DNA of 64,000 bases from Proteromonas lacertae (lineage: Eukaryota). The stretch's first letter is position 1, and each line of letters starts with the position of its first letter. The stretch spans positions 1 through 64,000 of the forward strand of contig NGBS01000303.1 in the NCBI GenBank assembly GCA_002245135.1, read 5' to 3'. The notes beneath the pieces are model-generated. The model worked only from the letters and a program-made list of their open reading frames with translations. It was not told the DNA's origin and ran no database searches. Both the position numbers and the translations under genes were made by a program. Shown here in pieces: positions 1 to 40,150 of this stretch.

Positions 1-1515
1 CAAAGGAGGAGGTGGTATTTGATTACTCATATCACCAAGATCATAAGTGTCTGAATCTTCTTCAGTATCACTACTTGATGGATTATTATCATTATCTTCA
101 CTATCACTATTTGCAGGTGATGCATTATAAAATGCATTGACATTTCTATCAATCAAATCTGCAGTAATTGATGGATGAGCAGGAGGATAATTAGCTGGTG
201 CAACATATCTCCAATTTCTATGATCTGCAACATTCATTCCAACATAAGCTGGAACTGATCTTCTATGTTTAATTTGACGGTTAAGTTGCGTATCTAAAGC
301 TCTATTCATTCTAAAAGTTATAGGATTAGCAAATATATTTGTATTGATTTGACCTTGTGGTACATGCGCTTCTGTTAATATTTTTTGTATAGTTGCTAAA
401 TAGTTATATCTATATCCTGTTCTATTATCACCATCTGGTAATCCCATAAAATTTCTTCTATCAGGATGATATGGTAAAGTATATTCATTATCATTTTGAT
501 AATTACCACTTAACTTATCTTTTAATATTGGTATGTAATATAAAGCTAATATATACAAATCAGTTACACAGTTGTATATGATTAATGCAATTGAATAAGC
601 TGTTTCTTCTTTTTGATTTGTTAAATACCAAAATTTAGTTCTCATTAAACGACCTATGTAGAACTTTATCTTATCTTTCAGAGAATCGCAAAAGCTAATT
701 ATATCATAATTTGCATTGTTATTATTTTCATTATTATCATTGTTATTATTTCCATTGTTGTTATTATTGTTATTATCATTACTTCCATTGTCTGCATTTA
801 CTAATACTCCTCTTACCATATTATCATGTCTATTTTGCATAACATTTTCCGCTCTTATTTCAGCTGCACTATTATAATGTTCATTATTCATTATGTTAAA
901 ATCATTTTCTGGTTCTGGATGTCTTTCATCAATTTCATAATGAGTTTTTTTAATTCTTCTATTTTCTAGTTGTGTAACACCTATTCTCTCTTTTGGATGT
1001 AAAACAACAAATGGATTTCTTTGTAATATAAAATCAGATGCCATACACAATTTATCAATACCATCTGCTATACGAGTTTTAAATATTCCACATTCTCTTG
1101 CATTAGCAGAATTTTCATTTCCTGCTAATTTTGGATTATAAGCTTCTAATGGTTTGCCATGTGCAAAAGGACCTGTTACAAATAAATTCTTACACCAATT
1201 AAACATTTTCATATGTTCATCATATAAATTATATATTCTATTAAATTCATGATTTGGCCATCCTATAGGAATTAGTCTATATTGCATAATCAATGCTTTG
1301 TTAAATCTTTTCACTTCTTGATTCACATAGTTATTCAAATCATCTTCGCTTATATCTTGAAATGGTATGACTTGATTCCTTCTATGTCTTCTTCTATGTC
1401 TTATTCTGTTCATATCAATAGGTACATTATCTTCATCTTCTTCATATTCATAATCATCATCTGTTGGTTCATCTTCTTCATCATTTGAATTGTTAACTTG
1501 TGGTTGTGGTTGCAT
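1..1515 (-). CDS. Viral hypothetical protein, >505 aa, partial (open to the window edge)
   Basis: Read manually from ATG at 1515 (MQPQPQVNNSNDEEDEPTDDDYEY...RIRHRRRHRRN...). No stop in 505 codons; absent from the ORF track because it has no stop in the window. Acidic, Arg-rich and Asn-rich segments. Confidence 0.85.
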   Translation of the reverse strand, partial: MQPQPQVNNSNDEEDEPTDDDYEYEEDEDNVPIDMNRIRHRRRHRRNQVIPFQDISEDDLNNYVNQEVKRFNKALIMQYRLIPIGWPNHEFNRIYNLYDEHMKMFNWCKNLFVTGPFAHGKPLEAYNPKLAGNENSANARECGIFKTRIADGIDKLCMASDFILQRNPFVVLHPKERIGVTQLENRRIKKTHYEIDERHPEPENDFNIMNNEHYNSAAEIRAENVMQNRHDNMVRGVLVNADNGSNDNNNNNNNGNNNNDNNENNNNANYDIISFCDSLKDKIKFYIGRLMRTKFWYLTNQKEETAYSIALIIYNCVTDLYILALYYIPILKDKLSGNYQNDNEYTLPYHPDRRNFMGLPDGDNRTGYRYNYLATIQKILTEAHVPQGQINTNIFANPITFRMNRALDTQLNRQIKHRRSVPAYVGMNVADHRNWRYVAPANYPPAHPSITADLIDRNVNAFYNASPANSDSEDNDNNPSSSDTEEDSDTYDLGDMSNQIPPPPL

Positions 1516-1600
1516 ATATATATATATATAACGATATATAAATTAAAGAATAATTCAAATAAAATTATATTTTAATATTTCTCAACAATTATAAAACATA

Positions 1601-2572
1601 ATGCAACCTAAAGATAGTAATAATGTTATAAATAATAGAAGATCATTGTTCTTAACTACATCAGACTATGATTCAAAATTTTCAAATAGATGGACAAGAT
1701 GTATTAATACTCCAACTATAACTGAAAAATATCAATATATGAGTTTAATTACTGCAGTTATTCCAAATAACTTCTATACAGTACAAGATGAAGTAAATGA
1801 TCATATACTCTTTAATTTTACTTATTATAACTGCATTAATCCAGATGAAACAAATCCAATAAAATGGGCATACCCTGAAAACCAAAATGGACCTTATAAT
1901 AAAACTATTGATATTAAAATACCTCAAAGAAAATATACAGGAAAAGAATTATTAGATTATTTTGCTAGAAATCTCTTAAGTTTTACTTTTTATGCATTTG
2001 ATAATGGAGTGGAACCATTACCTGATGAAGATTTTGCAAATAGATTTCCATTTCATAAAGTAGATGATCAAACAGATGTACTTCAATTTGAAAAAACTTC
2101 AGAAAATAGATTAAAGTTACAATTTAATTATATTACTCATTTCGGAAAATATTACTTTACAGACTTTACTATAGAATTCCCTAACTTAGCATATAAGTTA
2201 TTTGGTTTAGATGAAATAAATAAAAGTATATCAATTTATCATGCAAATCATTTAAGTGATGCATATTTCAGTAAAGATTTTAATTATTATTCTAATTTGT
2301 TACCAAATCAGCCTTCTTTACTATGGGTGTCATTCATACAAATTAGATGTGACTGGGTTAATAGTGGTGAGAATTCAATGGTTTTAGCAAATATACCTGT
2401 AACTGATATAAATGCAGATTATACTACATTCACTAATCCACAAATTGAATGGACAACTAAAAAGATGCAATATCACGAATATCAACGAATGAATATATCA
2501 GTCTCTCAACAAGATGGTTATGCAATTGATTTAAATAACTTACCTATTTATTTTGAGATTATTTTGTATTAA
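1601..2572 (+). CDS. Minor capsid protein (penton, single jelly-roll) of a Polinton-like virus
   Basis: Motif pattern typical of PLV/virophage pentons: SLITAVIPNNFYTV, YKLFG, IQIRCD, VLANIPV, C-terminal NISVSQQDGYAIDLNNLPIYFEIILY; lies directly before the MCP. Confidence 0.8.
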   Translation: MQPKDSNNVINNRRSLFLTTSDYDSKFSNRWTRCINTPTITEKYQYMSLITAVIPNNFYTVQDEVNDHILFNFTYYNCINPDETNPIKWAYPENQNGPYNKTIDIKIPQRKYTGKELLDYFARNLLSFTFYAFDNGVEPLPDEDFANRFPFHKVDDQTDVLQFEKTSENRLKLQFNYITHFGKYYFTDFTIEFPNLAYKLFGLDEINKSISIYHANHLSDAYFSKDFNYYSNLLPNQPSLLWVSFIQIRCDWVNSGENSMVLANIPVTDINADYTTFTNPQIEWTTKKMQYHEYQRMNISVSQQDGYAIDLNNLPIYFEIILY

Positions 2573-2626
2573 TAAATTTCTTGCTATTTTTAAGCATTTT
2601 TTGATTTTTAAAAAATAACATAAAAT

Positions 2627-4045
2627 ATGTCAATCACTGCTGTACCTAATTCACAAAAACATGAAAGCATTGTGCCAGCTTATATACCTGTCTACAATCA
2701 TATTTTAGTTACACCTAACCAAAGCAGAAATGAGACTGTTTTATCTTTAAATTCAAACAGTGATGCTATTACATTTGAAATATCTGGTGATAATTGTGTT
2801 AATCTATCTAAAAGTTACTTTGAATTTGAATTAGATTATACTACAGGTCAAAAAAGAGATCATGCAGATGCAGGTAAAGGACAATGGAAATTACCTATTA
2901 CACCTGTAACTGATTCTACTACTGGTAAAATGTTAGATCATATAAATTTAAGGAATTCAATGAATTTTGGAACTATCAAAGTATACAATAAAACTGGAAC
3001 ACTTCTATGTGATTTAGATAGTAGTTATAATGAATATCGAGATTTAGCTCATCAAATTGCTAACCAGTATCCTTATGATATAAAAGATTATCATTATTAT
3101 GAATATTTATTTGATGGCTTACGCATTAGAAATAATAAAATAGCTGAAACAACTATATGTAATTCTAATTCTACTTTAAATGCAAATGGAGGTGTTTGGA
3201 ATTATTGGGAAGAAATGGGAACAACAGAAGATATATTACATGGAAAACTATACTGTAGATTTCATTTTGCAGATTTCTATAATACCATATTAGCTTTGAA
3301 GAATGATATTTATTTTGGTGAAGTCATTTATATTCAATTCACATTTGCTCCTATAATGAATTGGATTCATCATAGCAATGGTTCTGTTTGGATTAATTCA
3401 TGGCAACAGCATGTAGGAATGAAAATTATTAATCCTAGACTTTACATTTGTTACAATAAAGATCCAACATGTAATGCTAATACCATTAATTATTCAACTC
3501 ATCATCCTATTGACTTTACTGACTTTAATATAGTTCAAATCACTAAAGATCCAATTCCAGGTAGTAATACTTTTAACTATAACTTCAGTATTAATAGTAG
3601 CATAGGAAGTTATGTTAAATATATATTATACAGAGCATATTATAATGATGCATATAATAGAGATACTATTCCTTTTGATCAAGATCAAGATAGAATAAGA
3701 TGGCAAATTAATGATTTCGTTTATACACCTGATTATTTATATCCTGCAAAATATCAGACATGGGAATATATGAGAAATATTATTCAAAATACAATATTTG
3801 ATAAATGTAATACATTATCATTTCCCAATTCATTTTTTGATGTTCTAAATTTCAGTACTGATCGATTAACTGAATTAAAATTAAGAGCTGGTAAAGACTT
3901 AGCAAGTGATTTAAAAATTACTTTGGATTGCTCAAATCAACGATTTGATGCTAATCATAATCCATATACAATTCATCATAAGTTCTACATAATTACTGGT
4001 AAACAATTGATTATTGGACCAAGAGGTGTTGAAAAGGTAGTATAA
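2627..4045 (+). CDS. Major capsid protein (double jelly-roll) of a Polinton-like virus
   Basis: 472 aa, beta-rich, intronless; N-terminal VTPNQ...ITFEISGDNCVNLSKSYFEFEL resembles PLV MCPs; sits between penton and ATPase. Confidence 0.78.
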   Translation: MSITAVPNSQKHESIVPAYIPVYNHILVTPNQSRNETVLSLNSNSDAITFEISGDNCVNLSKSYFEFELDYTTGQKRDHADAGKGQWKLPITPVTDSTTGKMLDHINLRNSMNFGTIKVYNKTGTLLCDLDSSYNEYRDLAHQIANQYPYDIKDYHYYEYLFDGLRIRNNKIAETTICNSNSTLNANGGVWNYWEEMGTTEDILHGKLYCRFHFADFYNTILALKNDIYFGEVIYIQFTFAPIMNWIHHSNGSVWINSWQQHVGMKIINPRLYICYNKDPTCNANTINYSTHHPIDFTDFNIVQITKDPIPGSNTFNYNFSINSSIGSYVKYILYRAYYNDAYNRDTIPFDQDQDRIRWQINDFVYTPDYLYPAKYQTWEYMRNIIQNTIFDKCNTLSFPNSFFDVLNFSTDRLTELKLRAGKDLASDLKITLDCSNQRFDANHNPYTIHHKFYIITGKQLIIGPRGVEKVV

Positions 4046-4115
4046 GTAATAATACTTTATTATTGACTTCTATTTTTATTTTTTGATTTCTCACTACATA
4101 ATATATACACACACT

Positions 4116-4877
4116 ATGTTTAAATTTGAAAAAATAAATAATATACAAATTGAACCTGTTGATGGTGGTGAGTCTTTTGATCCTAAGAAAATTCTGGGAT
4201 ATGATTACTTTAATGAGCCTTTCTGCAATATATTTATTGTAGCTCGTAAGAACAGTGGGAAAACTACTTTGATATACAATATATTAAGACATATTATAGA
4301 TCCAAAATATAAGAAAAAACAACATGTACATTTTTTCGTAGGTACAATTAAACAAGATAGGATATATGATTCAATTAAAGAGTTATTAGATTATAATGAA
4401 ATTAGTTATGATGAAAACGATTCATTATTTGAACCTTATTCAGGAGATAATTTAGTAGAGAAGTTAATGAAATCAATTGATGATACAAACAAAGATAATT
4501 TTGAGTATGCAGAACATATTATAATATTTGATGATCTTAGTTTAGAGTTGAAAACAGCTAATATCATACCAGTATTAATGAAAGAAAATAGACATTTAAA
4601 ATCAAAAATTATAATTAGTAGTCAATATATTACTGATATAGTACCTTCAGCAAGATCACAAGTAGATTATTGTTTAACATTTTATGGATTGAGTAATAGA
4701 AATTTGTTTGACTTATACAACTCATTGAATATATGGATACCTGAATATGAAACATTTAAAGAGTTATATTTAGCTGTTACTAAGCCACAATATAACTTCT
4801 TATATATTGATAATGTTAAAAAAGTGTTTAGAGCTAACTTTAATATTTTGATTGAAGATCATTCTGAAGTTTCTTGA
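4116..4877 (+). CDS. A32-like (FtsK/HerA) genome packaging ATPase
   Basis: Walker A ARKNSGKT, Walker B IIIFDD, RH...IIISSQY and IVPSARSQ motifs; ATG at 4116. Confidence 0.9.
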   Translation: MFKFEKINNIQIEPVDGGESFDPKKILGYDYFNEPFCNIFIVARKNSGKTTLIYNILRHIIDPKYKKKQHVHFFVGTIKQDRIYDSIKELLDYNEISYDENDSLFEPYSGDNLVEKLMKSIDDTNKDNFEYAEHIIIFDDLSLELKTANIIPVLMKENRHLKSKIIISSQYITDIVPSARSQVDYCLTFYGLSNRNLFDLYNSLNIWIPEYETFKELYLAVTKPQYNFLYIDNVKKVFRANFNILIEDHSEVS

Positions 4878-4921
4878 TGTTTTTATTAATTTTGTTATTT
4901 TATTGTTTATTAATTCAAAAA

Positions 4922-5707
4922 ATGTTTATTGGGGAACGAAATACTTCAGATATAAATATTGATACAGATAAGCTTGCTAAAGATATAGCTGACAAAATAA
5001 ATATACAACCTACTGATCCTGATACTATTGTTAAACCTATTAATAATCATACTGATACTCAAATAAATAATATTATTACACCTGTTAATGATATCAAAAC
5101 TACTACAAATACTATATATGGTAAATGTCAAGAAATATATAATGTTGTAAATAATAGCTCTGGAGGTAGTACTACAATAGTTAATAATTCTGTATCACCT
5201 AAATTATTGCATACTGAATATACATATTGGTCAGTTAATTTCTATATATTTCAAGATGGTTCCATCAATCAATATGAATCTACTGTAAAAGTACCTATAA
5301 AAATTCAAATGTTTGAACATTTTATGAGAATCAAGATATACAATGGCCTTGTTTTAAAAAATCATGATGATGGTTATGGATTTATATTATATCTAGATGA
5401 CAATCATGTTATTAAAGCTGAACCAGGTAAAGAAGATTTATTGCAACAATATTATAACAAATTATTAGAAACATACTTTGTAGATGGTAGTAATGGAATA
5501 TACTTCCCTATACAAGGTGTAATAAATGAAACTTCACAACCTGCAATTAATGATTATGGATGTTTTTGGCCTATATTAAGAAATAATAATAATAAATGTA
5601 ATCTTTATATAGAACGAAAAGGTCTTGATGCATATTCATATCAAGCATTCCCACCTCAAGTTATTATAACAGAGTGGATGGATACAGGTGTTACAGAACC
5701 ATTTTAA
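4922..5707 (+). CDS. Viral hypothetical protein, possible fibre/spike
   Basis: ATG at 4922; N-terminal repetitive I/N/D/T stalk, SSGGS linker, beta-rich aromatic C-terminal domain; follows the morphogenesis block. The function is inference. Confidence 0.6.
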   Translation: MFIGERNTSDINIDTDKLAKDIADKINIQPTDPDTIVKPINNHTDTQINNIITPVNDIKTTTNTIYGKCQEIYNVVNNSSGGSTTIVNNSVSPKLLHTEYTYWSVNFYIFQDGSINQYESTVKVPIKIQMFEHFMRIKIYNGLVLKNHDDGYGFILYLDDNHVIKAEPGKEDLLQQYYNKLLETYFVDGSNGIYFPIQGVINETSQPAINDYGCFWPILRNNNNKCNLYIERKGLDAYSYQAFPPQVIITEWMDTGVTEPF

Positions 5708-5842
5708 TCTTTATTATGATTATTTTATTATGTTTATTATAAAATTTATTATATTTTTATTATATTATATGATTTTTATTAAATTACGCATATTTTTAAA
5801 CCCTGTCCCAAATCATTTTAAGATAAAGATTCGTTTTAAAAT

Positions 5843-6322
5843 TTAGAGTATGTTTATCGTAGTTTGATCATTGTTTCCTTTAACTTCTTCTTGTGCTTCT
5901 TCTTCCTCATCATCATCACTATCATCAAATATATAATTCTTCTTTACATAATGTTTCAACATAGGATTCTTCTTCAAATGAACACTTCCCATTCCTTCAG
6001 GTAGTGTTAACCATTCAATATACTTATCAAACACTGCAAAATAATGTCTATTTAATCCTCTTGGTTTTACTGATGGTTTAATATCGAAAAGCATCATATA
6101 ATATCTCTTATCACTATACTTTGTCCACATCTTTTGATGGCAAATAGCACAGAATTCATTATAAGACTTTATCTCTTCCTTAGGTAATGGGCTATCTAAA
6201 ACTGCACTTATGTTATGGTTAAAATATAAGTAAAACTTACATGTTCCACATATACACTTATCTAAATAATCTTCATTATTTCTAAATGAACAAAAGAAAG
6301 CAAAGTTTACTGAAGCACACAT
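5843..6322 (-). CDS. Viral hypothetical protein (Cys-rich, acidic tail)
   Basis: 159-aa intronless ORF with CICGTC and CAICH motifs (possible zinc binding) and a DDSDDDEEEE tail. Confidence 0.65.
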   Translation of the reverse strand: MCASVNFAFFCSFRNNEDYLDKCICGTCKFYLYFNHNISAVLDSPLPKEEIKSYNEFCAICHQKMWTKYSDKRYYMMLFDIKPSVKPRGLNRHYFAVFDKYIEWLTLPEGMGSVHLKKNPMLKHYVKKNYIFDDSDDDEEEEAQEEVKGNNDQTTINIL

Positions 6323-6675
6323 ATTTTATATTTTTTTGATAAAAAACGGTTTTTCTAAAATATCAGGAAAATCAAAACTGTTTCTTTTTTCTGTTTATAA
6401 CAACAGTTTCTCGTCAGAATTTCGATTTATTAAAAAATATAGAATACTGCAGATAATTCTTTAAATATATATTTTTGATACTATTTAAATTCTTTTGAAT
6501 GTTTTTAACTACACTATATAAATCCATGAATAAATTGATAAATGAAAAAAAATAACCAAAAAAAAAGTAAGAACGCATTCTGTAGCTTGGCCACCACACT
6601 ATTTAATCACTAAGTCCTAGTCAGGCTACACAGGACACGCTACTTACTTACATAGAAATACATTTCTTATTCTAT

Positions 6676-6716
6676 AAAGTAGCTACCCTGCCGGGGTAGA
6701 ACAGGTAGCTACCTTT
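6676..6716. repeat. GC-rich palindromic cluster
   Basis: GTAGCTAC at 6679 and 6705, perfect 12-bp palindrome AGGTAGCTACCT at 6703-6714, inner hairpin CTACCC-tgccg-GGGTAG. Confidence 0.8.
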
Positions 6717-6843
6717 CTATTTCTACACATTATTTCTACTATCCTACGCTAAAAACTATTGAGGATATAAAAATAGAATTTGACCCATAAATTTATTCAC
6801 ACACTAAAATATATACACAATTTAAAATTCACCGCTTGCTCCA

Positions 6844-6960
6844 GTATAACCCGTACCAAAAACTAATTCACACTCAAATCGCTTATTCTTACCTGTAGAA
6901 GGCACCTAAGAATAGTCTGGTACGGTTTACCCACATACAGTGATATTCTTACGGTTATAC
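6844..6960. repeat. Nested inverted repeats
   Basis: CCGTACCA (~6851) pairs with TGGTACGG (~6918); TATTCTTA (~6884) pairs with TAAGAATA (~6907); GTATAACC (6844) pairs with GGTTATAC (6953-6960). Confidence 0.75.
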
Positions 6961-7225
6961 ATATATCAGATAAGATGATTTACATTAAATGTAACAATTG
7001 ATCTAATTCTCTAGTTTATATTAGAGTAATTAAATTCGAAAACAGTTTATTGTTCTTTTCATATATAACCTATTTTACCGATTAAACTATGCCTTTTGTA
7101 TATCACACATATATAGTATATTTTTGGTATAATATATAATTATTTATAAAAACTTTAAATGATACCAAGCTGTGATTTTTTAATGTCTTTTTATTGTATA
7201 GTTTATTAAATTACCCCCAAAAAAG

Positions 7226-7961
7226 CAAACAATTTAATAATTTTAAACAATTATTTATTAATTACGATTTATTCTCGTCTACTTTAAGTCTACAATGAAC
7301 TTCTTAATTCCCTCACTTGTTGCTTGAATACCTTTATCACCTTTCTTCCAGTTAGCTTGACAAACATTACCAGTTGTTCTTACAAATTCATAAGCATCTA
7401 AACATCTTAAACATTCATCTACACTACGACCAATTCCGAAATCATTAATAATAGTTTGAGCAATTATACCATCGTGGTTAATTACATATAAAGCACGATA
7501 ACAAGCTCCATTGTTATCATCTGAGGTTTTACCAGTGTGATAAATACCTAATTGTTTTACTAATTCATGGGTATAGTCAGAAGCATGTGCAATCTTTAAG
7601 GGACCAATACCGCCACTTGATCTTGGAACTCCTTGCCATGACAAATGAGAATAAACACTGTCACCAGATATTGTAATCACATCGCACTTTCTTTCAGCAA
7701 ATTTATCAGCAGCATCGTTAAATGCAAGAATTTCAGTTGGACAGACAAAGGTATAGTCCAATGGGTAGAATAACATCACTATAAGCAATAAATTTGAATT
7801 CTATAAAATGATCTTATACCTAAATACTTTCCTTTGTAATCAGAAAGCTTTACATGACTTATTTTGCCATTAACAACAGCTGGTAAATCGAAATCAGGGA
7901 ATTTTTGACCTGTGCAAGCCATAATTTAAAAAAGAATCTTGAGAGAATAAAAAAGAATTTT
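7226..7961 (-). repeat. Inverted duplicate (736 bp) of 24917-25652
   Basis: Reverse complement matches 24917-25652 across flanks, intron and CDS; the proteins are identical. Confidence 0.95.
7279..7922 (-). CDS. Typical 2-Cys peroxiredoxin, copy 1 (one 41-nt intron)
   Basis: FYPLDYTFVCPTE peroxidatic motif, GGIG, GRSVDE, resolving VCQANW; ATG at 7922. Confidence 0.95.
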
Positions 7962-8377
7962 GAAGATGAAATTGTTAAATTATCTTCAGAATTCTTGAGA
8001 AACCTTCAGAAATATCTTGAAACAGTAAGATTCAATATGCATCAACATTTTTTGATAATTATAATTGTTTGCTTTATATAACTTTTCACATGAACAATAT
8101 TACTAGCTATTTTATTGGTGCAATCCATCATAATAACTGTTATACTATTCTTTAATTATATTTTCATAACTGGACGATCTTTAGAGACAATTGAATTATT
8201 TATATTTTAGATCAATACAAATTACCTCAAATGCTTTCATAAACTCATCTTCATTCTATTGTCACGTTTCATTAAGCACTTCAATAAACTTCAGTAAATT
8301 TTAAAACAGATTCGTTTCAATTTTTATCACATCAGTTATACATATCTTTTAAGACAATAGGTGGCCATAATATTGTT

Positions 8378-9666
8378 ATGCTCCCAGAAATGTCTGCTAA
8401 AGAGGAAGGAGCAGCTATAGTTGATGTTCCATCACCTTCTATCACTCAATCAATGCCCTTACCTCCAGTTGAAGATACTAGTATTATTAAAAATAGTCAT
8501 TGTATTTAGACCAAGAAAATAACGTAGAAAATAAAAAAATAGCAGAAGAACAGCTTGATGTAGTAAATACACTGTAATCTTTTCATTTTTATATTATTAT
8601 GAATAGTGTAAATGCTCTTGTCATAGTTCCAAAATCAGAAAATGATAAAGAGAAAACAATAAACGTATTCTTTTAAAAAATAATCAAATTATTAGACTAT
8701 CCAATCTCCAATTAGTCCTAATACTTTACCAAATAGTAATGTAATGGGTTATTTCATGAATTACGCATTAGATCAAGGTAAAAGACCTTACATGGAAGAT
8801 CGAGTCAAAATCTCACCTCTCTTTTTCGCGTTACCTAATATAACCCTCAGTTATGCAGTATTATGTGATGGACATAGTGGATCAATAGCCTGTGATTATG
8901 TAATGGAAAATATAGATATATTACTTTCCACTAAAATTAGTGAAATAGATTGGGATAATATAGAGTGCTTAGAAACAGTAGTTAAACCAATGATAAATGA
9001 AATATATATAGAGTTAGATAAAAATATAATAGAGAAAACAAGACAAATGAAGAGAAATGATGGTTCAACAATGGTGTTAATCATTATCATCAATGAACAG
9101 TTATTTGTGAGTCATGTTGGAGATAGTCGAGCAGTCATGTCAATCAATAATAAAGCCAAAAGATTAACAGAAGATCATAAGCCCAATACAAAGAGTGAGA
9201 GTACTAGGATAAAGAATGCAGGTGGAATATTATATAAAAGTGATACATGGAGAGTAAGAGCAACTCCTAAAGCTCCAATTGGTTTAGCAGTGAGTAGAAG
9301 TTTGGGAGATAAATATGGTAAAACTACAATGCCGCATGTAATTAGTGAAATACCAGAATATCCTTTTTTTATATAATATATATATATTATAAGTAATAAA
9401 CTTCTTTAATTTTATTTTTTACTATTTCAACATACAAGATAACAAGTGATTATGATTTTTTAATCATTTGTAGTGATGGTGTTTGGGATGTAATTTCAGA
9501 TCAAAAGGCTGTTAATCGTGTGAATCAAGTACTACAAGTTGAATTGAAACATCATAATATTCCTGAAAGTTTAGAGATTGCAAGTAGAGCTATTCTAAAT
9601 GACGCTATGAATTTACATTCTCCAGATAATTTGTCTTGTATTATTATTTATTTAAAAAAAGAGTAA
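8378..9666 (+). CDS. Protein phosphatase 2C (PPM family), spliced; 5' end uncertain
   Basis: QGKRPYMEDR, CDGHSG, DGST, HVGDSR, DHKP, GLAVSRSLGD; after the AT-AC intron PDISTYKITSDYDFLIICSDGVWD...DNLS. Confidence 0.9.
9358..9422 (+). other. U12-type AT-AC intron (65 nt)
   Basis: 5' ATATCCTTT, branch-like TTCTTTAAT at 9402-9410, 3' TTTAC; removal gives GA|T and restores the frame and the conserved EIPDI motif. Confidence 0.9.
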
Positions 9667-9854
9667 TATAATATGTTTTTCAAAACGTGTATATATATTA
9701 TATTATTATTATATGTGTCTCTTGTCCATCACTCTTCATTATATGAAGAGTATTAAGATCTTTATAAATTACTAAAATTTTAAAAGAATTTTTGTTTTTT
9801 AAAATGATAATACAGAAAGAAAAAAACAGAAATAAATAGTATATATGTTTTTAT

Positions 9855-10598
9855 TTACTTAGAATCATTCTTTACTCTTCTTGGTGATTTAGATTTAGTC
9901 TTTTTCACTCCTTTCTTATTTCCTTTAGCTCTAGGTGATGTACCAGAAAATTCTAACTTAGTTTGATATATTTTATCAATATTCTTTCTCTGTTCCTTCA
10001 TTATTGTCTTTACATTCACTTTTTGAGGTGGATTTGGGTTTAATAGTTCTGCTATTGTCTTATGCTTTTCATTTGACTTGTATAGCTTTTCTGGACTTTC
10101 TAAATTATTAAAACAAGATGGTCTTTCTGTTACACCTGTATCATTTGGATTATAACTGTAATTAGCGAGTTTTTCTTTGTTTTCAGGTGAATTCTTTTGT
10201 GGATAATGAGATGGAAGCGGCTTTTCTGGATCTACACAAGTAGTAACTGAATGAGTTGTGTGTGATTTTGTTGTTGATTTTGGTGATTTTGTATTTCGAG
10301 CAGGAGACTGTTCATTTGATGTACTATTATTGTTTTCTGTTGTATCAGCTGGAAGATCATCTTCTTTTTTCTCTTCCTCTTTAAACTCATCAACATTGTC
10401 TTGTTTATCATCTTCATCTTTCTTTGCTTCACTTTCTGACTTTTCTTCATTGTTAGTAGTATTATTATCTTCTACGGCTGGCTCTATTTCTAATTCTTCT
10501 TCTTTTGATTCTTCTAATTGTTCAACATCATCTTTGTGTTCTTCAGTTGGATCAGGTGCATCTTCTTCTGTTTTTACAACAATATCTTCATCAGACAT
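9855..10598 (-). CDS. Hypothetical low-complexity protein (acidic N-terminus, basic C-terminus)
   Basis: 247-aa ORF, E/D/K-rich with SP motifs. Confidence 0.7.
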   Translation of the reverse strand: MSDEDIVVKTEEDAPDPTEEHKDDVEQLEESKEEELEIEPAVEDNNTTNNEEKSESEAKKDEDDKQDNVDEFKEEEKKEDDLPADTTENNNSTSNEQSPARNTKSPKSTTKSHTTHSVTTCVDPEKPLPSHYPQKNSPENKEKLANYSYNPNDTGVTERPSCFNNLESPEKLYKSNEKHKTIAELLNPNPPQKVNVKTIMKEQRKNIDKIYQTKLEFSGTSPRAKGNKKGVKKTKSKSPRRVKNDSK

Positions 10599-10763
10599 TG
10601 AGATTTCAAGAACGGTTTTTAAAAATATCGAAAATGGTGTATAAAAATTTTCGAATGAAAAAAAGCCGCAAAATTAAAAATCATTAAAACAAATGAAATA
10701 AAACATTATAGATATGTAATTAAGGTAATTATGAAAATAAAATGTTATTAATTATTGTATTTT

Positions 10764-12908
10764 TTACTTATGTTCATCTCTTAATTGACAAAACTGTTCA
10801 ATTAAAGCTTCAATAGTCTTCTCACCTTCAACAACATTTTCTCTTGTTCTAACATTCACAGTCTTCTTAGATTCTTCTTCTTTACCAACAACCAATATGT
10901 AATTGAACTGAGATACTTGAGCTTCTCGAATCTTCTTATTCAATGTATTACTAGAGTCATCTACTTCAACATCAAAACCAGCATTCCATATCTTATTCTT
11001 AATTTCATTAGCATATCCCATAAATGCTTCACTGACTGGAACAACAATACATTGTCTTGGAGATAACCAGAATGGCCATTTTCCTTTATAATGTTCACAT
11101 AATATAGCATAACATCTTTCTACACTTCCTAACATAGCACGATGAACTATAACTGGAGTTTCAAATACATCTTCGCCTGATTTACCTGATTTATATTTCA
11201 ATTCGAATCTAATTGGTAATTGGAAATCTAATTGTACTGTAGCTGTTTGATGTTGTCTTTTTAATGAATCCATCACTTTAATATCTATCTTTGGACCATA
11301 GAAAGCACCATCACCTGGATTTACCTTCCATTTACCTTCACCAGCGAATTCATTCAACGCTTCTGTTAATTGTTGTTCTGCCTTATCCCATAATGCAATA
11401 TCTCCCATTGATTTCTCTGGACGTGTTGATAATTCTAATTCGTAACTCATACCGAATGTATCATATACATGTTTCATAAAATTTAATGCACCAGAAACTT
11501 CTTGTTTAATTTGATCTTGTCTACAGAAAATATGAGCATCATCTTGTTGGAATCTTCTAACTCGAGTCAAGCCTGATAAAGCACCACTCAATTCATTACG
11601 ATGTAATACTCCAAAATCAGCGAATCGAATAGGTAAATCTCGATAAGATCTAATAGAATGTTTGAACATTAAACAATGTCCTGGACAATTCATTGGTTTT
11701 AAGCCAAATTCAACATCTTCAGCTTTAAATAAGAACATATTCTCTCTATAATGATCACCATGACCAGATATTCTCCATAAATCGAAATTGAACACATTTG
11801 GTGAAATTACTTCAGTATATCCTCTTACTCTATATTGTTCTCTAATAAATTCAACTAATCGATTATATATCCTTGCACCATGAGGTAAAAAGAAACAACT
11901 GCCAGGTGATAACTCATGGAAGAAAAATAGATTCTGTTGTTCACCAATTCTTCGATGATCATTCTTCTTAGCTTCTTCTTGGAACTTGAGGAACTCTTTT
12001 AATTGCTTTGCTTCAGGGAAGGAAGTACCATATACTCTTTGAAGACTATCATTACTTGCATCTCCTAACCAATAGCATGCACTGTTCTTTGTTACAGCAA
12101 ATCCTTTCACTTTTTGAGTGTTTGGTAGATGTGGGCCACGACATAAATCAATTAGAGTACCACAACGGTATAATGTTGTCATATCACCATCTTTTACTTT
12201 TGTAGTTAATATTTGGATTTTGAAGGGGTTATCACTGAATATTTCCATTGCTTGTTCTTTGGTACATACTAATCTTTGGAAGGGTTGCTTCTCTGATTGG
12301 TATTGTTTAACTAATTTTTCTAATTCAGAGTAATCTTTCTCTGTAACTACGTTTCCTCCCATATAAGCATCATAATAGAAACCATCTTGAACAGCTGGAC
12401 CGGTACATAACTTTACACCATAGTAATTTTCTAATGCTTCACCTAACATGTGAGCTGAACTGTGCCAGAAGACGTTTTTACCTTCTTCATCTTCGAATTT
12501 GAATAATTTCAATGTACAACTCTTCTCAAGTACTCTTGTTAAATCATACATTGCATCATCAACTTTTGCAGCAACTACATGTTGGGCAAGACCTGAAGAT
12601 ATTTGGTTTGCAATATCTAATGGTGTTGTCTTCCATGCTTCACCTTCTTTTGTGCTACCATCAGGTAAAGTTATAGTAATCTTGTCATGAGGTTTAGCTT
12701 CGATATCTGCTTGCATTTGTGCATAATATTTATCAAATACATCAGTACGATCTTTTAAGAAGGATGGTGTCTTTTGAAGGATGAACTCTCCACCAATACT
12801 TCCTTTAGTACTCATGGTCTTTTCAGTTCCTGCAACTAAACGACCTCCTTCTCTTTGTCTATTGAAATATTAACTTATCATTGCATACGGTGCAGCTGGA
12901 ATACTCAT
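10764..12908 (-). CDS. TARS1: Threonyl-tRNA synthetase, cytosolic type
   Basis: TGS domain, HSSAH, KPMNCPGHC, GLTRVRRFQQDDAH, GAFYGPKID; short first exon followed by a 30-nt intron. Confidence 0.97.
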
Positions 12909-13108
12909 AACCCAAGAAGAAATTAAGAAATAAAATTCTGTTTGATAATTATAGATGTTTTTATAGAATCACTGAACGTTTAGATGTGAGGCTTATTTTT
13001 TAATTTCCGATTTCGTCATTATATAAAAATATTTATACAAAAATATCTACGAAATCATATTAAGTTCATTAATACTAATTAAATTATTCAATAAATAAAC
13101 TAAATTCT

Positions 13109-13460
13109 CTACACATTGTTTGGATTTATCTCAAAACTAGGCTTAGACATACTGAATCTTTCAAAAATATATTTAATATCATTACTAAAAGACTACTTTC
13201 TCATAATTTTCACAACATCTTCTTTAGATAGATTTGAAAGTGTGTTTAACATTTCAATTAATGTATCTATCATTATAACAAATCTAAATAATTACTCATT
13301 TCTTCATCGGTAGTATTTATCACACTTAATTTATTCAATATTATCAATTCTCTAACATTTGATTTAACCTACATAATAAATAAATGATACTTTTGGTTGT
13401 ACTAATGTAGGCAGCTTCTTAATATTTTTGATTACTATTTTCATTTTCGAATACATTCCT
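13109..13460 (-). CDS. Small spliced hypothetical gene (start not identified)
   Basis: Four segments join through three short GT-AG introns into one frame (NVFENEIVIK...KPSFEINPNNV*). Confidence 0.4.
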
Positions 13461-13591
13461 TATAAAGCGAGAAAAATGAAAGAATAAAATCAAGCAAATG
13501 TTTGAATAAAACGACTATATATTTAGAAATTGAATATCTCATGCAATAATGCCATAAACACAAATTAAAATAAATAATAACAAAATAAAAA

Positions 13592-14694
13592 TTAATCTGT
13601 TTGTTTAGGAATCCAAAACGCAACATTCTTACCACAAGTTACAAACATTGCTTGTTCTGGTGAAAATTTCATAAAACTAATATTAGTCATATTACCAACA
13701 CTCCCCAAATTACAAGTTTCTGCAGGTGCATTAATATCAACCAAGTCAATACTACTATATTTCGATCCAGAAGCTAATAGATACTGTGTTTGTGGTACAA
13801 AGCATGTCGCACTAGAATCAACATCTTTCAATATACCTCCATGAAGTGTTTCCATCACTTGAGTCACATAATTTGTTACACCCAATTTAATAATCTCTTT
13901 GCCTATGGCTACATTATCATTAAATCCGGTAGTTTCAAAGGATAATACTTGCTTAGTATCTTTAGATAATGGATATGTAGAAAATGCACCTGTCGCTATT
14001 TTTCTTATATCAATCAAGCTCAATCCTGTTGTGGCTGTGATTACTTCAATCACTAATTCGCTTGGATCTAAAAGACAATGTAAATCTGCACCAGATTGTT
14101 TACCTGTAGCTACAGCCTTCTTTTCTCTTAAATCCCACAAAAGGAACTTCTCATCAGATCCTCCTGTTATAAAATAATCATTCTTTATTGCTGAACATAT
14201 ACTATTCACTCTATTTACATATAAATAAATATAAAATTATGAAAATTCATACTGATCTTTATGCCCAACGAATTTACATAGGCAACGATTATCATGAAGT
14301 GATATATATTGTATAGCACCAATATCTTCCTTTGTACATGATGCTAATACACTTGTTTGATGATGAGTGAATTTTATATTGGAACAACCTGTTGCTTGGC
14401 ATCCTAGTGTTTTTCTCTCTCTATTAAGATATATTATTAATAAATTATATACTTTCCATATGTTGCATCATATAATTTGATTTCATCATTAGAAGTAGTC
14501 AATACACAGTATGCACCTGTTTAGAATAATTTAATAAACATACCTGTATAATGAAAATCCATTGATGTCACATCTTCAGCCTATCCATGATGTAAATCCA
14601 ATAAAAATACCCCAGATGGAAAAATTGCTGCAATATCAAATGATTTTATATAATCTGGAGTCAAAACAACCCCTTGCTGTGGTGATTCTTCCAT
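13592..14694 (-). CDS. WD40 protein, WDR82/Swd2-like
   Basis: VTSMDFH, KFVGHKD..VNSI, FITGGSDEKFLLWDLR, C-terminal FSPEQAMFVTCGKNVAFW; several ~30-nt introns. Confidence 0.75.
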
Positions 14695-14766
14695 TTATTA
14701 AAATTGATTTTGAAATGTTTGAAACGATCAAACTTTCATTACATTTTTAAAAATTTCTAGTGAAGG

Positions 14767-16745
14767 ATGAAGATTGTAATATTTTTAATGCTTTGCCTGA
14801 TGTATGTTACGCCTATACATTATGTTGACAATGAAGTTGTGCCATTAATAGCCAGAAAAGTACCTTATTTTTGTTTAATATCAATATAGATTGGTCCAAT
14901 GCACAATCCAAGTGAAACTTATAATTATTTACACTTACCTTTCTGTTCTAGAGAAGTATAATATTTTCATCTCTCTATTACTTACACAAAATAGGATTCC
15001 AAATCAGTGAATTCAAAAATGGAGGAAGTATTAATTGGATCAAGACGTTACTTAACTCCTTATGAAATTTTGTTCAAACAAAATGTAACGTTTAAAGAAT
15101 TATGTAGAAAAATCTTAGATAAAGATAAAGTGATGGAATTCAGTGAAGCAGTACATGATGAGTATTATATTGAATTTCTAATGGATGAACTTCCATTTTG
15201 GATTCATATCGGTGAAGTAAAGAATGAAGACATGGTATTTGGTCATTTATCAGATGCTCGTCATTATCTATACACTCAAATCAACTTTGACATTGGATAT
15301 AATGGAGATCAAATAATCTACGTAAATGCGACTACTCCTTCAACAGAACGTGTAGATGTATCAAATACAATTGGGCATAAATTAAAAGACAATGAACCAC
15401 TAGAAATTGCATTTTCTTATTCAGTTAGATGGATTCCTTGCAGTATCCCATACGAAGAAAGACTTAATACATATTTTAATGTATTTATTAGTGTATTATT
15501 ATATTTATAAATAGAAAGGATTTTTACCAAAGAGTAAAGAGATTCATTGGGTATTTATTATTAATTCAACTATATTGGTGATAATATTGGCTTTATATAT
15601 ATTATATGTATTAGCTAATAGCTTAAGACAAGATTTTGCAGTGTATATATATATATATCTATATATATATATATATATTACATTTTTTATATTTTTTTAC
15701 TTCTTCATCATTTTCTAATTATTCTAGTGGTGTTGCTTTAATGGATGATGATAATAGTGAAAAAGGTAATTCCGCTGTTGATGAAATCGGTTGGAAATTA
15801 GTCCACAGTGATGTCTTCAGAATACCCAATCAATTGTCATTACTATGTGCCATAGTAGGAAATGGAATACAATTATTGGTACTATCAGTTATACTAGTAA
15901 TATACTGTCAAATCGTAGAATATGGCTTGAGTAGAAAAGGTGCAATAGTGTTTACCATAATTGTAGTTTATTGTATTACTACTTTCATTAATGGTTATGT
16001 AACTGCTTATTTGTATGGTTATTTTGGTGGTAAATTTTGGGCTACTAATGTTTTATTATCTGATGGTTTATTTTTAATACCATTCGCTGTTGTATTTCTC
16101 TTATTAAACATGGTAGCAGTAGGCAATGAATCTACAGCAGCATTACCATTCACTACTATCTTAGCAATTTCTTGTATGTATCTCTTTATTGGCTTTCCAC
16201 TCAGTATATTTGGTGGAATAATGGCTCATAATAAAGCCAAACCATTCCATCCACCAGCTAGAGTAAGTAAAGTAGAAAGAGATATACCAAAATGTCCTTG
16301 GTATCATCAATTTACAAGCCATTTATTAATAGGTGGATTATTGCCATTCTCATCTATTTATGTTGAGATGTTTTATATATTTGGATCAATGTGGGGAAAT
16401 ATGTATTATACTTATTATGGATTATTAACTATTGCTTTATTCTTATTGATATTAGTTACATGTTTATTAACAATAGAGTTGACTTATTTTACATTAACTT
16501 GTGAGAATTGGAGATGGTGGTGGAGAGCTGTGATTTGTGGTGGTTCTGCTGGTGGATTTTTGTTTGCTTATAGTGTATTATATTATTTTATTTCTACTCA
16601 TATGGATGGATTTATGCAGGCTGTTTATTATTTTGGTTATATGGGAATTATATCCTATGGAGTATTTTTAATATTATCTGCTATTGGATTTGTCAGTTCA
16701 TTCAAATTTGTTAATTATCTATATGGTTCATTGAAATTTGATTAA
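14767..16745 (+). CDS. Transmembrane 9 superfamily (TM9SF/EMP70) protein
   Basis: Signal peptide, GPMHNPSETY, GWKLVHSDVFR, nine TM helices, C-terminal KFD. Confidence 0.93.
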
Positions 16746-16836
16746 AAAATTATTATTATTTTCTTTATCTTTTTTTTACATCATATTATGTGTTTTTATT
16801 GAATAACAAAAACACTATTAAGAAAAATATGATTAA

Positions 16837-17870
16837 TTATTCAAATTGTTTTTCTTCTAATACATGCATTCCGCCATGCCAATCGCCAATATATATTTTA
16901 TCATTAAAACAGTTGATACTAGTCAACTTTGTATTATCTTCCATAATTTTATAGATTGCTGGTTTTTCTGGGTTATTTAAATCATATACACCTATTTTAC
17001 CTTCACCATTTACAGCATATATTTTATTATGTAATCCTAACAAATCAAACACGATTTCTGACTCAATTTCAGGTAATCTTATAGGAGTAGTTACATCATT
17101 CTCTTTTCTCATCTAATCACAACAATAAATAAATATATATACGCATATTTTACCATCCATATAAGAATATAACAATGAATTATCATCTGATATTTTCAAA
17201 GCCAATGGACAAACGTTTAAATCAACATCAGCTATTCTTATTTCATTATTATCTAATACAGTACTCTGCTATATATTAATATAGGAGACTATATACTTTT
17301 ATTGTTAAATCATTGCTGGTTGTGATAATTGAATTAGCCCAATTCACTGATTTCCATATTATATCTTGATGTATTCCTCCTGAACATTTTATACCAAAAT
17401 TCTTATCTGTATCAAGATAATCTATTCTTCCATTTCCTCTTCCTGCTATTATTCCACCATTATATGATAATAAAGATGGTAATGTGTTTCTCTTACGTTT
17501 GAATATCAAGTAGGTTGATGGATAGGTTTTGGTTGTTTCACATTTCCAAGTTGCTGTATTCCATACTTTGAATGAATTATCTGCACTTGATGAATACATT
17601 TTATTTCCATGAGCAATCAAACATAATACACTTTTAGTATGTCCTTTCAAAGTCTTTTCACATTCTAAAGTGTTTTCTTTATGAACCTGTACTTATTATA
17701 CAAACAAATATTCATACCTTTATTGTAAAATCATCACTACAAGTGACAATTTTGTTTTCTATGTGAAGAACTGAGTTGATGTTAGCGTCATGCAATTTTT
17801 TGGTTAAAAGTGGTTTTAATAATCTCTAAATATATTATATATAATATATAAATACAATAGCTTTATTCAT
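16837..17870 (-). CDS. WD40 repeat protein
   Basis: GHTKSVLCL...SSSADNSFKVWN and further WD repeats; spliced. Confidence 0.8.
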
Positions 17871-18019
17871 TTGCTGAAGAAATCAAGAAATCCCAATTTT
17901 CTAAAATAAATAGATTCGTTTCTTCTCAAACAAATTCAAACCATTTCACTATGAAAGGTTACATATTTAGTTTTTCTCATTTTCGTCTCCTATAGTCCTT
18001 TATTTTATTCTTTTACTTC

Positions 18020-19764
18020 ATGTTGAGGTATATGCATATGTTTCCAATATGTACACGGAATTTTTCAAACTGTTTGAAACAAAAGAGAATTCAAACAGGT
18101 TTGAAGCATTTTAATAAAATGAGCGAAAAAAGAAAGGCTACAAATGCATCTAAGTCACCAGCTAAGAAGGTATTATTTATAAATGCATTTATCTATTTAT
18201 ATCTAGAAATTTAAGTCTAAAGAAGAGGAACTTAAACATTTTTATCAGACTCAACTAAATCAATACACAAAAGATGGAAATGCAGATGAAGCTTTTAACA
18301 CATTAAAACAAGCAAAAGAAAATAAAGTAATTATCACTCCGTATTTATTTTCATATTTTATAAGAATAGTTCAATGTGTGCACAAGTATTGAATCTATGT
18401 ACTACTGTTGAACAATTTCCAAAAGCCAAAGAAATACACGATATTATGAAAGCTGACAAAATTGAATTTTCAGAAAACTGTTTAACCCGTATATAATCTC
18501 AGCATTAATCTATAAATAAATAGCTTTAATAAAATTATATTCATTAAAAGATGACTATAATACAGCTAAATCACTTTACACACAAATCTTATATAATCAT
18601 TTAAAACCAAGATTAAGAACATATCAACCATTATTATCCTATTGCTCAAGCCACAAGCTTCCTGATGATATAGAGTATTATTATAATGAAATATTAAATA
18701 ATGATATTGAATTAAATCATGAAGTTTATTTACCTATATTAGAATGTTATGATTTAATAAATGATAAATCCAAATTTCACTCTACACTAGAAAGAATGAG
18801 TAATTCTTTGTTTTCAATAACTCCACCAATAAAAGATATAATTCAATCACATTATAAAAAAGAAGGTTATAATCTAGAAGAATGTAATATCAATAATGAA
18901 GGAATTTGTAGCAAATGTCAATGTAAATTGAAATCAATAAATTTAGAACAATCAGAAAAGGAGAATTTATTAACTCAATTGCATAGAATAATGACTAGTG
19001 GAAATACAAGTGGAAGTATAAGACAAAAATCAGCATCAGATTATATGGAATTTTTAAAAGCACATGATGATTATACTGTCTTTATTGATTCAGCAAATGT
19101 GGGATATTACGCTCAAAATTTTGAAAAAGGTTCATTTAGTTATTATCAGATTGATAAAGTGTATGATAAATTGAAAGAAAATGGAAATAAATGTCTATTG
19201 TTATTACACATTTCACATACAAATCCAACAAATGAATATTTAGAAGTATATATATATATATTCACTTGAAAATTATTTTTAATTTTACTTTTTCTGTTTA
19301 TATATAATAATAATAATAATTATTATTATTATTATATAGAAATGGAAGAAAAGTGGTGATTTATATTTAGTACCTCAAGGCAATAATGATGATTGGTATT
19401 GGATGTATGGTGCTTTAAGCAGTAAATTACCAAATGTAAAGATTGTTAGTAATGATTTAATGAGGGATCATTTCTTTCAAATGATATCACCGAAATATTT
19501 TAAAATATGGAGAGAAAGACATGAAATTAAATATACATTTAGAGGTGATATTAATAATAGATATCCTTATTTTTTCTATCCTTCTGTGTATTCTAAACGT
19601 TCTCAATTTGTTGTAGTATGTTTATTATATTATATTGTTTATTCTAGGATGATGAAAAGAACATAAGTAGTTGGCATTTTCCAATAATTACTGAAACACA
19701 GAATAATAAAGGTGAAATTATTTCTAATTATCAATGGTTTTGTGTAAACTATCCAAATAAATAA
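18020..19764 (+). CDS. PRORP: Protein-only RNase P (PPR + NYN nuclease domain)
   Basis: PPR-like helices (PRLRTYQPLL), CSKC zinc motif, VFIDSANVG, NDDWYWMYGA, VSNDLMRDH, C-terminal WHFP...WFC. Confidence 0.9.
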
Positions 19765-22828: not shown

Positions 22829-23151
22829 ATTTCACTATTCTTTATAAAAAAAGAAAAACGACTATTTTTGAAAATCTATAATAAAAAATTATGAGTGTAA
22901 AAGGTATAAGAGTGTTGAATAAGAATATTTAATTGCCATTTCGTCATTTAGTTATGCATTATTAAAAAAAATTACAATTTAGTGATATATAAGAGTTTTA
23001 CTTTGTTGTTCTAAACACTTCAAACATGATTTTTAATAAGAAATATAAATAACAATACAATTTATGGTGATGTTTGGATAATAATGTTCTTTAATAGTGT
23101 TTATATATTAACGAAAATTTTCAAACACCAGATTTTAAAGATATTTTAATT

Positions 23152-24761: not shown

Positions 24762-24955
24762 TTGGTCTAATATGACTTATATCTTATAGTCAATTGATTT
24801 GGGTTAAAAAAAACAATTGTTAATCTAGAAAGTTCTTGATTTTTCGGTTTTAAAGCTTGATCTGGCTTGAATTCCTCAAACTTCTGAAGCGATTTTATTG
24901 GATATAACTTATCTCTAAAATTCTATTTTATTCTCTCAAGATTCTTTTTTAAATT

Positions 24956-25599
24956 ATGGCTTGCACAGGTCAAAAATTCCCTGATTTCGATTTACCAGCT
25001 GTTGTTAATGGCAAAATAAGTCATGTAAAGCTTTCTGATTACAAAGGAAAGTATTTAGGTATAAGATCTTTTTATAGAATTCAAATTTATTGCTTATAGT
25101 GATGTTATTCTACCCATTGGACTATACCTTTGTCTGTCCAACTGAAATTCTTGCATTTAACGATGCTGCTGATAAATTTGCTGAAAGAAAGTGCGATGTG
25201 ATTACAATATCTGGTGACAGTGTTTATTCTCATTTGTCATGGCAAGGAGTTCCAAGATCAAGTGGCGGTATTGGTCCCTTAAAGATTGCACATGCTTCTG
25301 ACTATACCCATGAATTAGTAAAACAATTAGGTATTTATCACACTGGTAAAACCTCAGATGATAACAATGGAGCTTGTTATCGTGCTTTATATGTAATTAA
25401 CCACGATGGTATAATTGCTCAAACTATTATTAATGATTTCGGAATTGGTCGTAGTGTAGATGAATGTTTAAGATGTTTAGATGCTTATGAATTTGTAAGA
25501 ACAACTGGTAATGTTTGTCAAGCTAACTGGAAGAAAGGTGATAAAGGTATTCAAGCAACAAGTGAGGGAATTAAGAAGTTCATTGTAGACTTAAAGTAG
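24956..25599 (+). CDS. Typical 2-Cys peroxiredoxin, copy 2 (intron 25059-25099)
   Basis: Same protein as 7279-7922. Confidence 0.95.
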
Positions 25600-25727
25600 A
25601 CGAGAGTAAATCGTAATTAATAAATAATTGTTTAAAATTATTAAATTGTTTGTTTAAATGGGTAATTTTCTGAAATAAAGCATAACGATTAACATAATAA
25701 TAATAATAATAAAATATATTAATAATC

Positions 25728-40034: not shown

Positions 40035-40150
40035 TTTTCTAAATTTGAATTGTGAAACCACTCTATTTTTGAAAATTATAATAAAACCTTGATATATTTG
40101 TATGGAATATGTTAAATGTTATAAGAGAGTGTGATATGAATGTAGATGGT
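39988..40150 (+). repeat. 163-bp direct repeat, copy A
   Basis: Matches 41664-41826 (offset 1676) with 2 mismatches seen. Confidence 0.95.

Follow-up and report, generated by a model that had tools for sequence, protein, structure and literature searches.

The 64,000-nucleotide (nt) stretch of DNA analyzed here, hereafter the window, begins with a compact block of six virus-like open reading frames (ORFs), which give way at about 7 kilobases (kb) to genes of eukaryotic type. The block raises the question of whether it belongs to an intact integrated virus, as the initial annotation had proposed, or to something less. The reading that we favor, with slightly better than even confidence, is that positions 1 to ~6960 are the right arm of a complete, 15-30 kb integrated Polinton-like virus, a member of a Proteromonas-type capsid clade residing in an AT-rich chromosome of a gut stramenopile. 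Integrated Polinton-like viruses are common in protists. The block is a new example from this known group of elements, and its clade is one that has been listed in print but was found without a description.

Three adjacent ORFs, previously labeled penton-like, major capsid protein (MCP)-like and A32 ATPase, were borne out at the positions proposed, and three further ORFs complete the block (Table 1). By sequence, the presumptive capsid protein matches nothing in Pfam (none at E≤1), PHROGs or the PDB sequences, and a profile of its family finds no PDB sequence at E≤10; by these searches it is not a virophage-type capsid. Its predicted structure gave a clear answer. An AlphaFold2 model computed from 8 sequences (mean pLDDT 59.6) retrieved 126 Foldseek matches at E≤0.001, and 23 of 23 among the matches listed were double-jelly-roll proteins. 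The best PDB match was the mavirus MCP (E 5.6e-11, TM 0.41), followed by Sputnik, PR772, iridovirus, PRD1 and PBCV-1 capsids at 6-11% identity. The BFVD collection returned the same double-jelly-roll picture. Neighbors in the ESM Atlas include capsid families, with a recognition value below the mark set by the tool. A word-based search found seven homologues, at 39-75% identity. We conclude that this ORF is predicted to encode a double-jelly-roll MCP, the fold anticipated for it.

The same matches bear on whether the block is Polinton-like at all. That it might instead come from a true virophage, be a giant-virus fragment or represent capsid genes domesticated by the host finds some encouragement in the first rank of the mavirus virophage capsid, and in the ascovirus, pithovirus and other giant-virus capsids that appear in BFVD at similar E-values. 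However, identities to those structures are only 6-14% (8-11% in structural alignments with the mavirus and Sputnik capsids), and ranks do not separate the double-jelly-roll families. Neither the window capsid nor 25 relatives of it have a Pfam match to virophage or giant-virus capsids, and the closest profile matches that come with DNA context are found on short contigs (≤20 kb) whose gene sets are Polinton-like. Domestication, for its part, fits poorly with a dense, intronless block of six genes in viral order. We regard all three origins as very improbable.

The downstream ORF is, as judged from its sequence, an A32 packaging ATPase with intact motifs. It scores 23.0 bits against Pfam Pox_A32 (cut-off 22.8) and matches the STIV B204 packaging NTPase at E 0.0024. 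The 107 homologues found include many with PF04665, the closest being 92, 89 and 81% identical. Residues 43-50 and 135-140, which we take to be the Walker A and Walker B motifs, are conserved among them, as are downstream motifs that presumably correspond to the Arg and SSQ elements. As a separate observation, the ATPases 81-92% identical to that of the window come from unnamed sequencing-run assemblies (P0014, P0015 and P0017), whereas the best capsid matches are lower, at 52% over full length and 75% for a fragment. This gap could reflect faster change of the capsid, module swapping within the clade or incomplete sampling.

The probable penton is the weakest of the three core assignments. 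A search of its profile against PDB sequences gave nothing useful. In the ESM Atlas its top cluster is that of the Sputnik V18/19 minor capsid protein (score 0.98, the family being present on 26% of members), again with a recognition value below the mark. Foldseek places adenovirus penton base or its derivatives at ranks 1 to 8, all at E≥0.05. VIA-align gives Z of 5.0-6.8 to five capsid chains, among them the aviadenovirus and mavirus pentons, and at most 3.6 to the rest; the tool warns that Z below 8 may reflect a common arrangement. Only residues ~56-244 are modeled well, the termini being poor. Six homologues were found by the word-based search, at 36-59% identity. The fold and ESM Atlas evidence, converging but weak, together with the position of the gene directly ahead of the capsid gene, make a penton the likely identity of this protein. 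With the predicted capsid fold, the ATPase family, the likely penton and a gene order typical of viruses, the trio can be recognized as the morphogenesis module that the initial annotation had seen in it.

Such a module is the property of several kinds of element. Mavirus, endogenous virophages and Maverick-Polintons combine a double-jelly-roll capsid, a penton (only probable in the window) and an A32 ATPase, as the window does, and all integrate into host chromosomes. Maverick-Polintons are defined by a maturation protease, a protein-primed family B DNA polymerase (PolB) and an rve integrase, none of which is visible in the window; virophages are marked by a cysteine protease, likewise not visible, and by reliance on a giant virus. 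Polinton-like viruses in the broad sense carry the morphogenesis module, a replication gene and an integrase (rve or tyrosine recombinase) in genomes of 15-40 kb, with terminal inverted repeats and, once integrated, a target-site duplication (10.64898/2026.06.19.733378; here and below, papers are cited for those parts of them that were accessible). Of these features, the window has the predicted double-jelly-roll capsid and the A32 ATPase, the evidence on the penton leaning the same way. The block is filed neither as a Polinton nor as a virophage.

To which lineage it belongs was addressed with protein trees. The capsid and penton homologues found by the word-based search all came from one collection of assembled sequencing runs. 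A capsid profile search of 1.84 billion representatives yielded 257 proteins, 12 of them at E≤1e-30. The capsid tree, midpoint-rooted and free of named viruses, comprises 90 sequences: the window, six of the seven first homologues (one fragment was dropped), P0121-P0199 of 380-560 amino acids (aa), P0200-P0268 being left out, and 18 ORFs from environmental loci. The window falls in a clade of 13 members with support of 1.0, on a stem of 1.36 substitutions per site; in the ATPase tree (115 sequences) a 13-member clade has support of 0.993. The claim of a divergent lineage is upheld by the long branch of the capsid clade. Scans of metagenome, viral and prokaryote-genome collections with the capsid profile, and of viral contigs with the penton profile, the single ATPase sequence and ORF1, returned no close relatives with DNA context.

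The lineage is not wholly new, however. A survey of 2023 had already tabulated relatives of the capsid gene in Proteromonas lacertae: Tables S1, S3 and S4 of PMC10120064 list 285 capsid genes for this organism, all of them in a single cluster marked "new" (number 25 by our own column count), and endogenous viruses are estimated there at 5.7 Mb, or 10.9% of the genome. The main text of that paper does not name Proteromonas. The cluster lies outside the virophage columns and, by the same column count, has no "Mavpol" label in Table S4; clusters were built there at a minimum of 25% identity across 30% of the length. The accessible portion of a Halocafeteria preprint likewise has the Proteromonas elements in a separate cluster (10.64898/2026.07.28.741278). 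We compared the representative capsid of the cluster (450 aa, of which 400 are printed) with that of the window in three hand-picked blocks, by eye and not by computed alignment. Identities were 13 of 18 (residues 50-67), 9 of 15 (218-232) and 16 of 23 (316-338), a total of 38 of 56, vs 21 of 56 (8, 7 and 6) for the outgroup L014, an environmental locus described below. Both capsids match double jelly rolls by fold and both come from an AT-rich host context, but sequence differences outside the three blocks are wide and mark the Proteromonas representative as a different virus. These family-specific blocks suggest that the window capsid likely belongs to the Proteromonas-type cluster. No description of a genome of this clade was found in the literature open to view, to which subscription papers, preprint supplements and part of Table S5 do not belong.

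If the virus is real, is it intact? The six ORFs, without an internal stop, occupy 94.6% of bases 1-6322. Given the local nucleotide frequencies, runs of 323, 472 and 253 codons counted from a given start would escape a stop by chance with probabilities of 8.5e-13, 2.3e-18 and 3.5e-10, respectively; across the six ORF lengths the values range from 1e-6 to 1e-19. Independent homologues match the penton, capsid and ATPase ORFs over their whole length, so none of the three requires an intron or a frameshift. Decay was further assessed at columns invariant among the other members of each family, each member being left out in turn for comparison. The window keeps 105 of 106 such columns in the capsid (7 others), 54 of 56 in the penton (6 others) and 65 of 65 in the ATPase (13 closest others), within the range of the other left-out members. 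Judged by these sequences, the capsid arm is undecayed and the visible genes bear no sign of decay, a state that does not by itself date the insertion. The description of the ORFs as intronless and free of stops and frameshifts therefore holds; "intact" is warranted for the capsid arm, while intactness of the whole element, like a recent insertion or a capacity for reactivation, goes beyond this evidence. Likewise, co-orientation is true of the three core ORFs, all on the + strand, and of only four of the six in the block.

Base composition is nearly the same on the two sides of the junction (26.6% GC on the viral and 27.5% on the host side, 27.4% in the whole window), which fits a virus that has adapted to an AT-rich host over a long time. 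Viral and host ORFs do differ in GC3s (0.11 vs 0.16; six viral ORFs vs 14 of 16 host ORFs, p 0.03) and in the observed/expected ratio of CpG (0.21 vs 0.36).

An element that is truly integrated but truncated or non-autonomous, its capsid arm surviving and its replication and integration arm lost or broken, is an alternative that we consider unlikely, though it deserves serious attention. Such a copy could at most be mobilized by other copies or give capsids to them. The low CpG of the viral ORFs could reflect methylation-driven loss, and partial copies are common in Halocafeteria (10.64898/2026.07.28.741278). In agreement with the initial annotation, the six viral ORFs match no polymerase, integrase or protease family in Pfam or PHROGs. 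On the other hand, there is no stop, no frameshift and no excess loss of invariant residues in ~2,000 codons. Moreover, ORF1 has no end within the window, which means that the element reaches at least to base 1.

The right end of the element was sought in the DNA that follows ORF6. Positions 6323-7215 are gene-free, and no coding remnant beyond short frames was found in 6323-7278, nor any further copy of the six viral proteins in 6961-64000. In 200-nt windows, GC content is 31-34% over about 6500-7000 and drops to 20% over 7000-7300. Two clusters of short repeats, both direct and inverted, occupy 6626-6750 and 6837-6961; the repeat score of the latter is in the top 0.65% of 12,775 windows and is reached in 5 of 2000 shuffles, although this segment was picked after inspection and higher scores occur elsewhere in the window. 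The element could end after 6961 (with CA) or near 7011 (with CT). Retroviral-type integrases require CA ends; Polinton ends are CT. The GC step and the repeat cluster make the proposed boundary at ~6.9 kb plausible without fixing the exact terminus. A terminal hairpin was considered and dropped, as 34 of 300 shuffles fold equally well. There is no sign of insertion at a tRNA gene, since the window has no tRNA genes and the vicinity of the junction no credible Rfam match.

Could the join to the host be an artefact of assembly, in which a host contig was fused to a viral genome that is free or episomal, or to a repeat that was collapsed? Regions of this kind assemble badly and can give a false consensus (PMC10120064). 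The join falls within AT-rich non-coding DNA, and one end of a 752-nt host repeat of 99% identity is 255 bp away, a setting in which assemblers may go wrong. Yet the window contains no N characters and hence no N-gap, the block ends in ~640 bp of non-coding, repeat-rich DNA and a GC step rather than in the middle of a gene, and those relatives that have a name are endogenous elements of a protist. We judge an artefactual join of a real virus to be quite unlikely.

Several points nonetheless weigh against a complete integrated virus. The structures that define one, two terminal repeats, a target-site duplication, a replicase and an integrase, are not within the window, and the candidate terminal repeat has no partner copy anywhere in its 64 kb. 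Folding of the candidate terminal stretch is unconvincing (the 34 shuffles just mentioned; z -2.0 for 6560-7000). About half of published high-quality insertions lack detectable terminal repeats (PMC10120064), a point that also suits a truncated copy; the 47% in which repeats were found count in favor of a complete virus. No fold match of the penton is significant (Foldseek E≥0.05, VIA-align Z≤6.8), and its jelly-roll strands are modeled at pLDDT below 50. The virus-host junction is known from the assembly. Finally, relatives predict the missing genes poorly, because their capsids are only ~20-24% identical and replication modules are freely swapped in the group (10.64898/2026.10.13.758929).

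Such relatives were obtained by ATPase-based scans, which identified 64 more distant loci. The capsid profile matches an ORF in 22 of them at E≤0.05, shuffles giving none. For the penton profile, matches to the 555 locus ORFs were discarded when at E>0.0004, as shuffled ORFs reach E 0.001 in three of three replicates. Three loci (L014, L017 and L044) have the penton-capsid-ATPase order of the window, the penton match of L044 being marginal. In L014, HHalign relates the capsid (probability 94.6, E 7e-8) and the penton (probability 75.9, E 2e-5) to those of the window, and the ATPases of L014, L017, L044 and L049 are homologous to the window's. In L014, L044 and L049, unlike in the window, a small ORF separates the capsid and ATPase genes; the environmental loci all fall outside the window's clade and show no match to its ORF1, ORF5 or ORF6. 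Among 24 hand-picked ORFs from eight long loci, we found an rve integrase in two loci, a protein-primed PolB in one, DUF5906 (presumably a helicase domain) in six and an adenovirus-type protease in one. L014 combines the protein-primed PolB with an rve integrase ending in a chromodomain (12972-14063), and the L044 integrase has the same C-terminal domain (9912-11009). L049 appears to be a complete environmental Polinton-like genome of 18.6 kb (1-18606) with 154-bp terminal repeats; it encodes a superfamily-1 helicase, a phospholipase-A2-like domain and, terminating a 521-aa ORF, an adenovirus-type protease domain, with no integrase among the four ORFs scanned.

On the favored reading of a complete integrated virus, an integrase encoded to the left of the window would have inserted the linear genome by way of its terminal repeats. 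We lean slightly towards an enzyme of retroviral type; a tyrosine recombinase is the less probable choice and the lack of any integrase improbable. The copy would then be inherited with the host chromosome, probably in a quiet state, until induction leads to its excision or copying by a viral polymerase or helicase-primase whose gene would lie out of sight. Capsid trimers and pentons would assemble into an icosahedral shell whose vertices bear ORF5 trimers as fibers, a step modeled on virophages and adenoviruses and on folds that are themselves predicted. The ATPase, whose family is established, would finally pump the genome in.

Table 1. Features of the viral block and its right flank (window coordinates).
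Feature	Position	Strand	Remarks
ORF1	1-1515	-	505+ aa, open at window edge; function unassigned
Probable minor capsid protein (penton)	1601-2572	+	323 aa
Major capsid protein, predicted double jelly roll	2627-4045	+	472 aa
A32-type genome-packaging ATPase	4116-4877	+	253 aa
ORF5, likely trimeric fiber or spike	4922-5707 (ORF from 4877)	+	261 aa from second ATG
ORF6, Cys/His-rich, acidic tail	5843-6322	-	159 aa
Non-coding stretch, candidate right terminal inverted repeat	6323-6961		GC 31-34% over about 6500-7000; short-repeat clusters
First host gene, peroxiredoxin (flank, outside element)	7279-7922	-	Pfam AhpC-TSA E 1.3e-19

The remaining viral ORFs are less telling. ORF1 has an acidic N-terminus, an Arg/His patch and a poly-Asn tract, and no convincing match in Pfam, PHROGs, PDB sequences or IMG/VR; it is counted as viral because it is intronless, has a virus-like GC3s of 0.09 and abuts the penton gene. 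Translation of ORF5 probably starts at the second ATG, as the first 15 codons are T-rich and spacer-like. PDB sequences yielded nothing useful for it. Its three-copy model scored 0.39, the best control 0.00; in a calibration made on two copies only, 21 of 30 proteins solved as pairs came up to this mark, and none of 23 solved as single chains did. The three-copy runs have 52% or more of their contacts in common (pLDDT 45), with in-register contacts at residues 18-77 and a core made mostly of Ile, Leu and Val. The protein is predicted to form a coiled-coil trimer with an N-terminal stalk and a C-terminal head, an architecture that makes it a likely vertex fiber or spike. ORF6, with only sub-threshold matches to Pfam zinc fingers (E 0.07 and 0.22), could possibly encode a zinc-binding regulator. 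A 9-nt T-rich motif was noticed at 2599-2607 (+), 4081-4089 (+) and 6369-6377 (-), 20-47 nt upstream of three viral start codons. It occurs 14 times in the window vs 7.5 expected (2 of 100 shuffles reach this count), also after some stop codons, and may be a promoter, a 3' signal or a chance product.

One more integrated copy changes little; the value of the locus is in its clade, a long-branched one that scans of viral, metagenome and prokaryote collections failed to find and whose only named relative found is a table entry for a reptile-gut protist. A bolder proposal, which we put forward as improbable, is that of a still-active lineage of small DNA viruses, an order or class of its own, confined to Opalinata of the vertebrate gut, the window carrying a provirus that is complete and inducible, resides in a Blastocystis-type host with AT-rich DNA, makes fiber-bearing virions and needs no giant-virus helper. 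If true, gut Opalinata protists would gain with it their first culturable DNA virus system. Apart from this proposal, should the host be of Blastocystis type and grow in culture, an undecayed copy would make it testable whether virions form and whether a giant virus is needed.

For ten Blastocystis assemblies, Table S1 of PMC10120064 is without a capsid count, and neither "Polinton" nor "Maverick" occurs in the main text of a 2025 Blastocystis genome paper. A midsize capsid-coding DNA virus, the MELD virus, has been reported from Blastocystis hominis datasets; it involves a gut protist of the Opalinata, the group that is also the probable host group of the window, and virion proteins unrecognizable by sequence (PMC8502044). 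A "MELD virus sp." entry of BFVD, with no host given, is second by structure to the window capsid, at 12% identity. The accessible text of another study reports no gene flux between egoviruses, the gut giant viruses surveyed there, and Blastocystis (10.1101/2024.03.23.586382). Palindromes mark some element ends in the Halocafeteria preprint (10.64898/2026.07.28.741278). Human Blastocystis have a GC content of 39-55% and introns of exactly 30 bp; tortoise lineages have 21.5-23.1% GC, longer, variable introns and no downstream element, and the P. lacertae genome has 27.0% GC (PMC12129017). The downstream element described there for human Blastocystis is not enriched in the window (5 exact matches vs ~6.7 expected), which makes a host among the human subtypes unlikely, and the GC values disagree with one as well. 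Taken together with the 27.4% GC and the 27-48-nt introns of the window and with the named relative of its virus, this points to an AT-rich member of the Opalinata as the probable host, no single genus being favored.

Genes of eukaryotic type start at 7279, with Pfam matches identifying the peroxiredoxin, a PP2C phosphatase and threonyl-tRNA synthetase. EMP70, PRORP, SBDS, Mob1, a longin SNARE, Myb and others follow, a Pfam family being found in 18 of 22 further ORFs scanned. The peroxiredoxin gene has a 41-nt GT-AG intron (7779-7819, read by eye), and a script found frame-restoring GT-AG candidates at 12 of 16 host junctions examined. As picked among candidates, these introns measure 27-48 nt, half of them 27-32 nt. 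The host genes had been called intron-rich; short GT-AG introns are indeed present, but not in every gene, threonyl-tRNA synthetase being a single ORF of 683 aa.

The peroxiredoxin gene is present twice in inverted orientation, at 7216-7967 (255 bp from the candidate element end) and 24911-25662, the copies being 99% identical over 752 nt, intron included, with unrelated flanks. This points to a recent duplication or gene conversion. The pair was rejected as a terminal repeat of the virus, since an intron-bearing host gene is involved and the repeat begins 255 bp past the candidate end. A cluster of related host genes, copied in direct as well as inverted orientation at 70-98% DNA identity, occupies 39988-50133, where two ORFs (44871-45503 and 47388-47999) encode hydrophobic N-termini and three ORFs scanned have no Pfam family. 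Peptidase M20 (23150-24761), a DHDPS-family lyase (29198-30430), a semialdehyde dehydrogenase (54727-55254) and a glycoside hydrolase 2 (58704-60464) are candidates for gene transfer from gut bacteria; introns were found in all but the dehydrogenase gene. Lastly, positions 42560-44693 encode a calcineurin-like phosphatase followed by several EF hands (Pfam), presumably of the PPEF/RdgC type.

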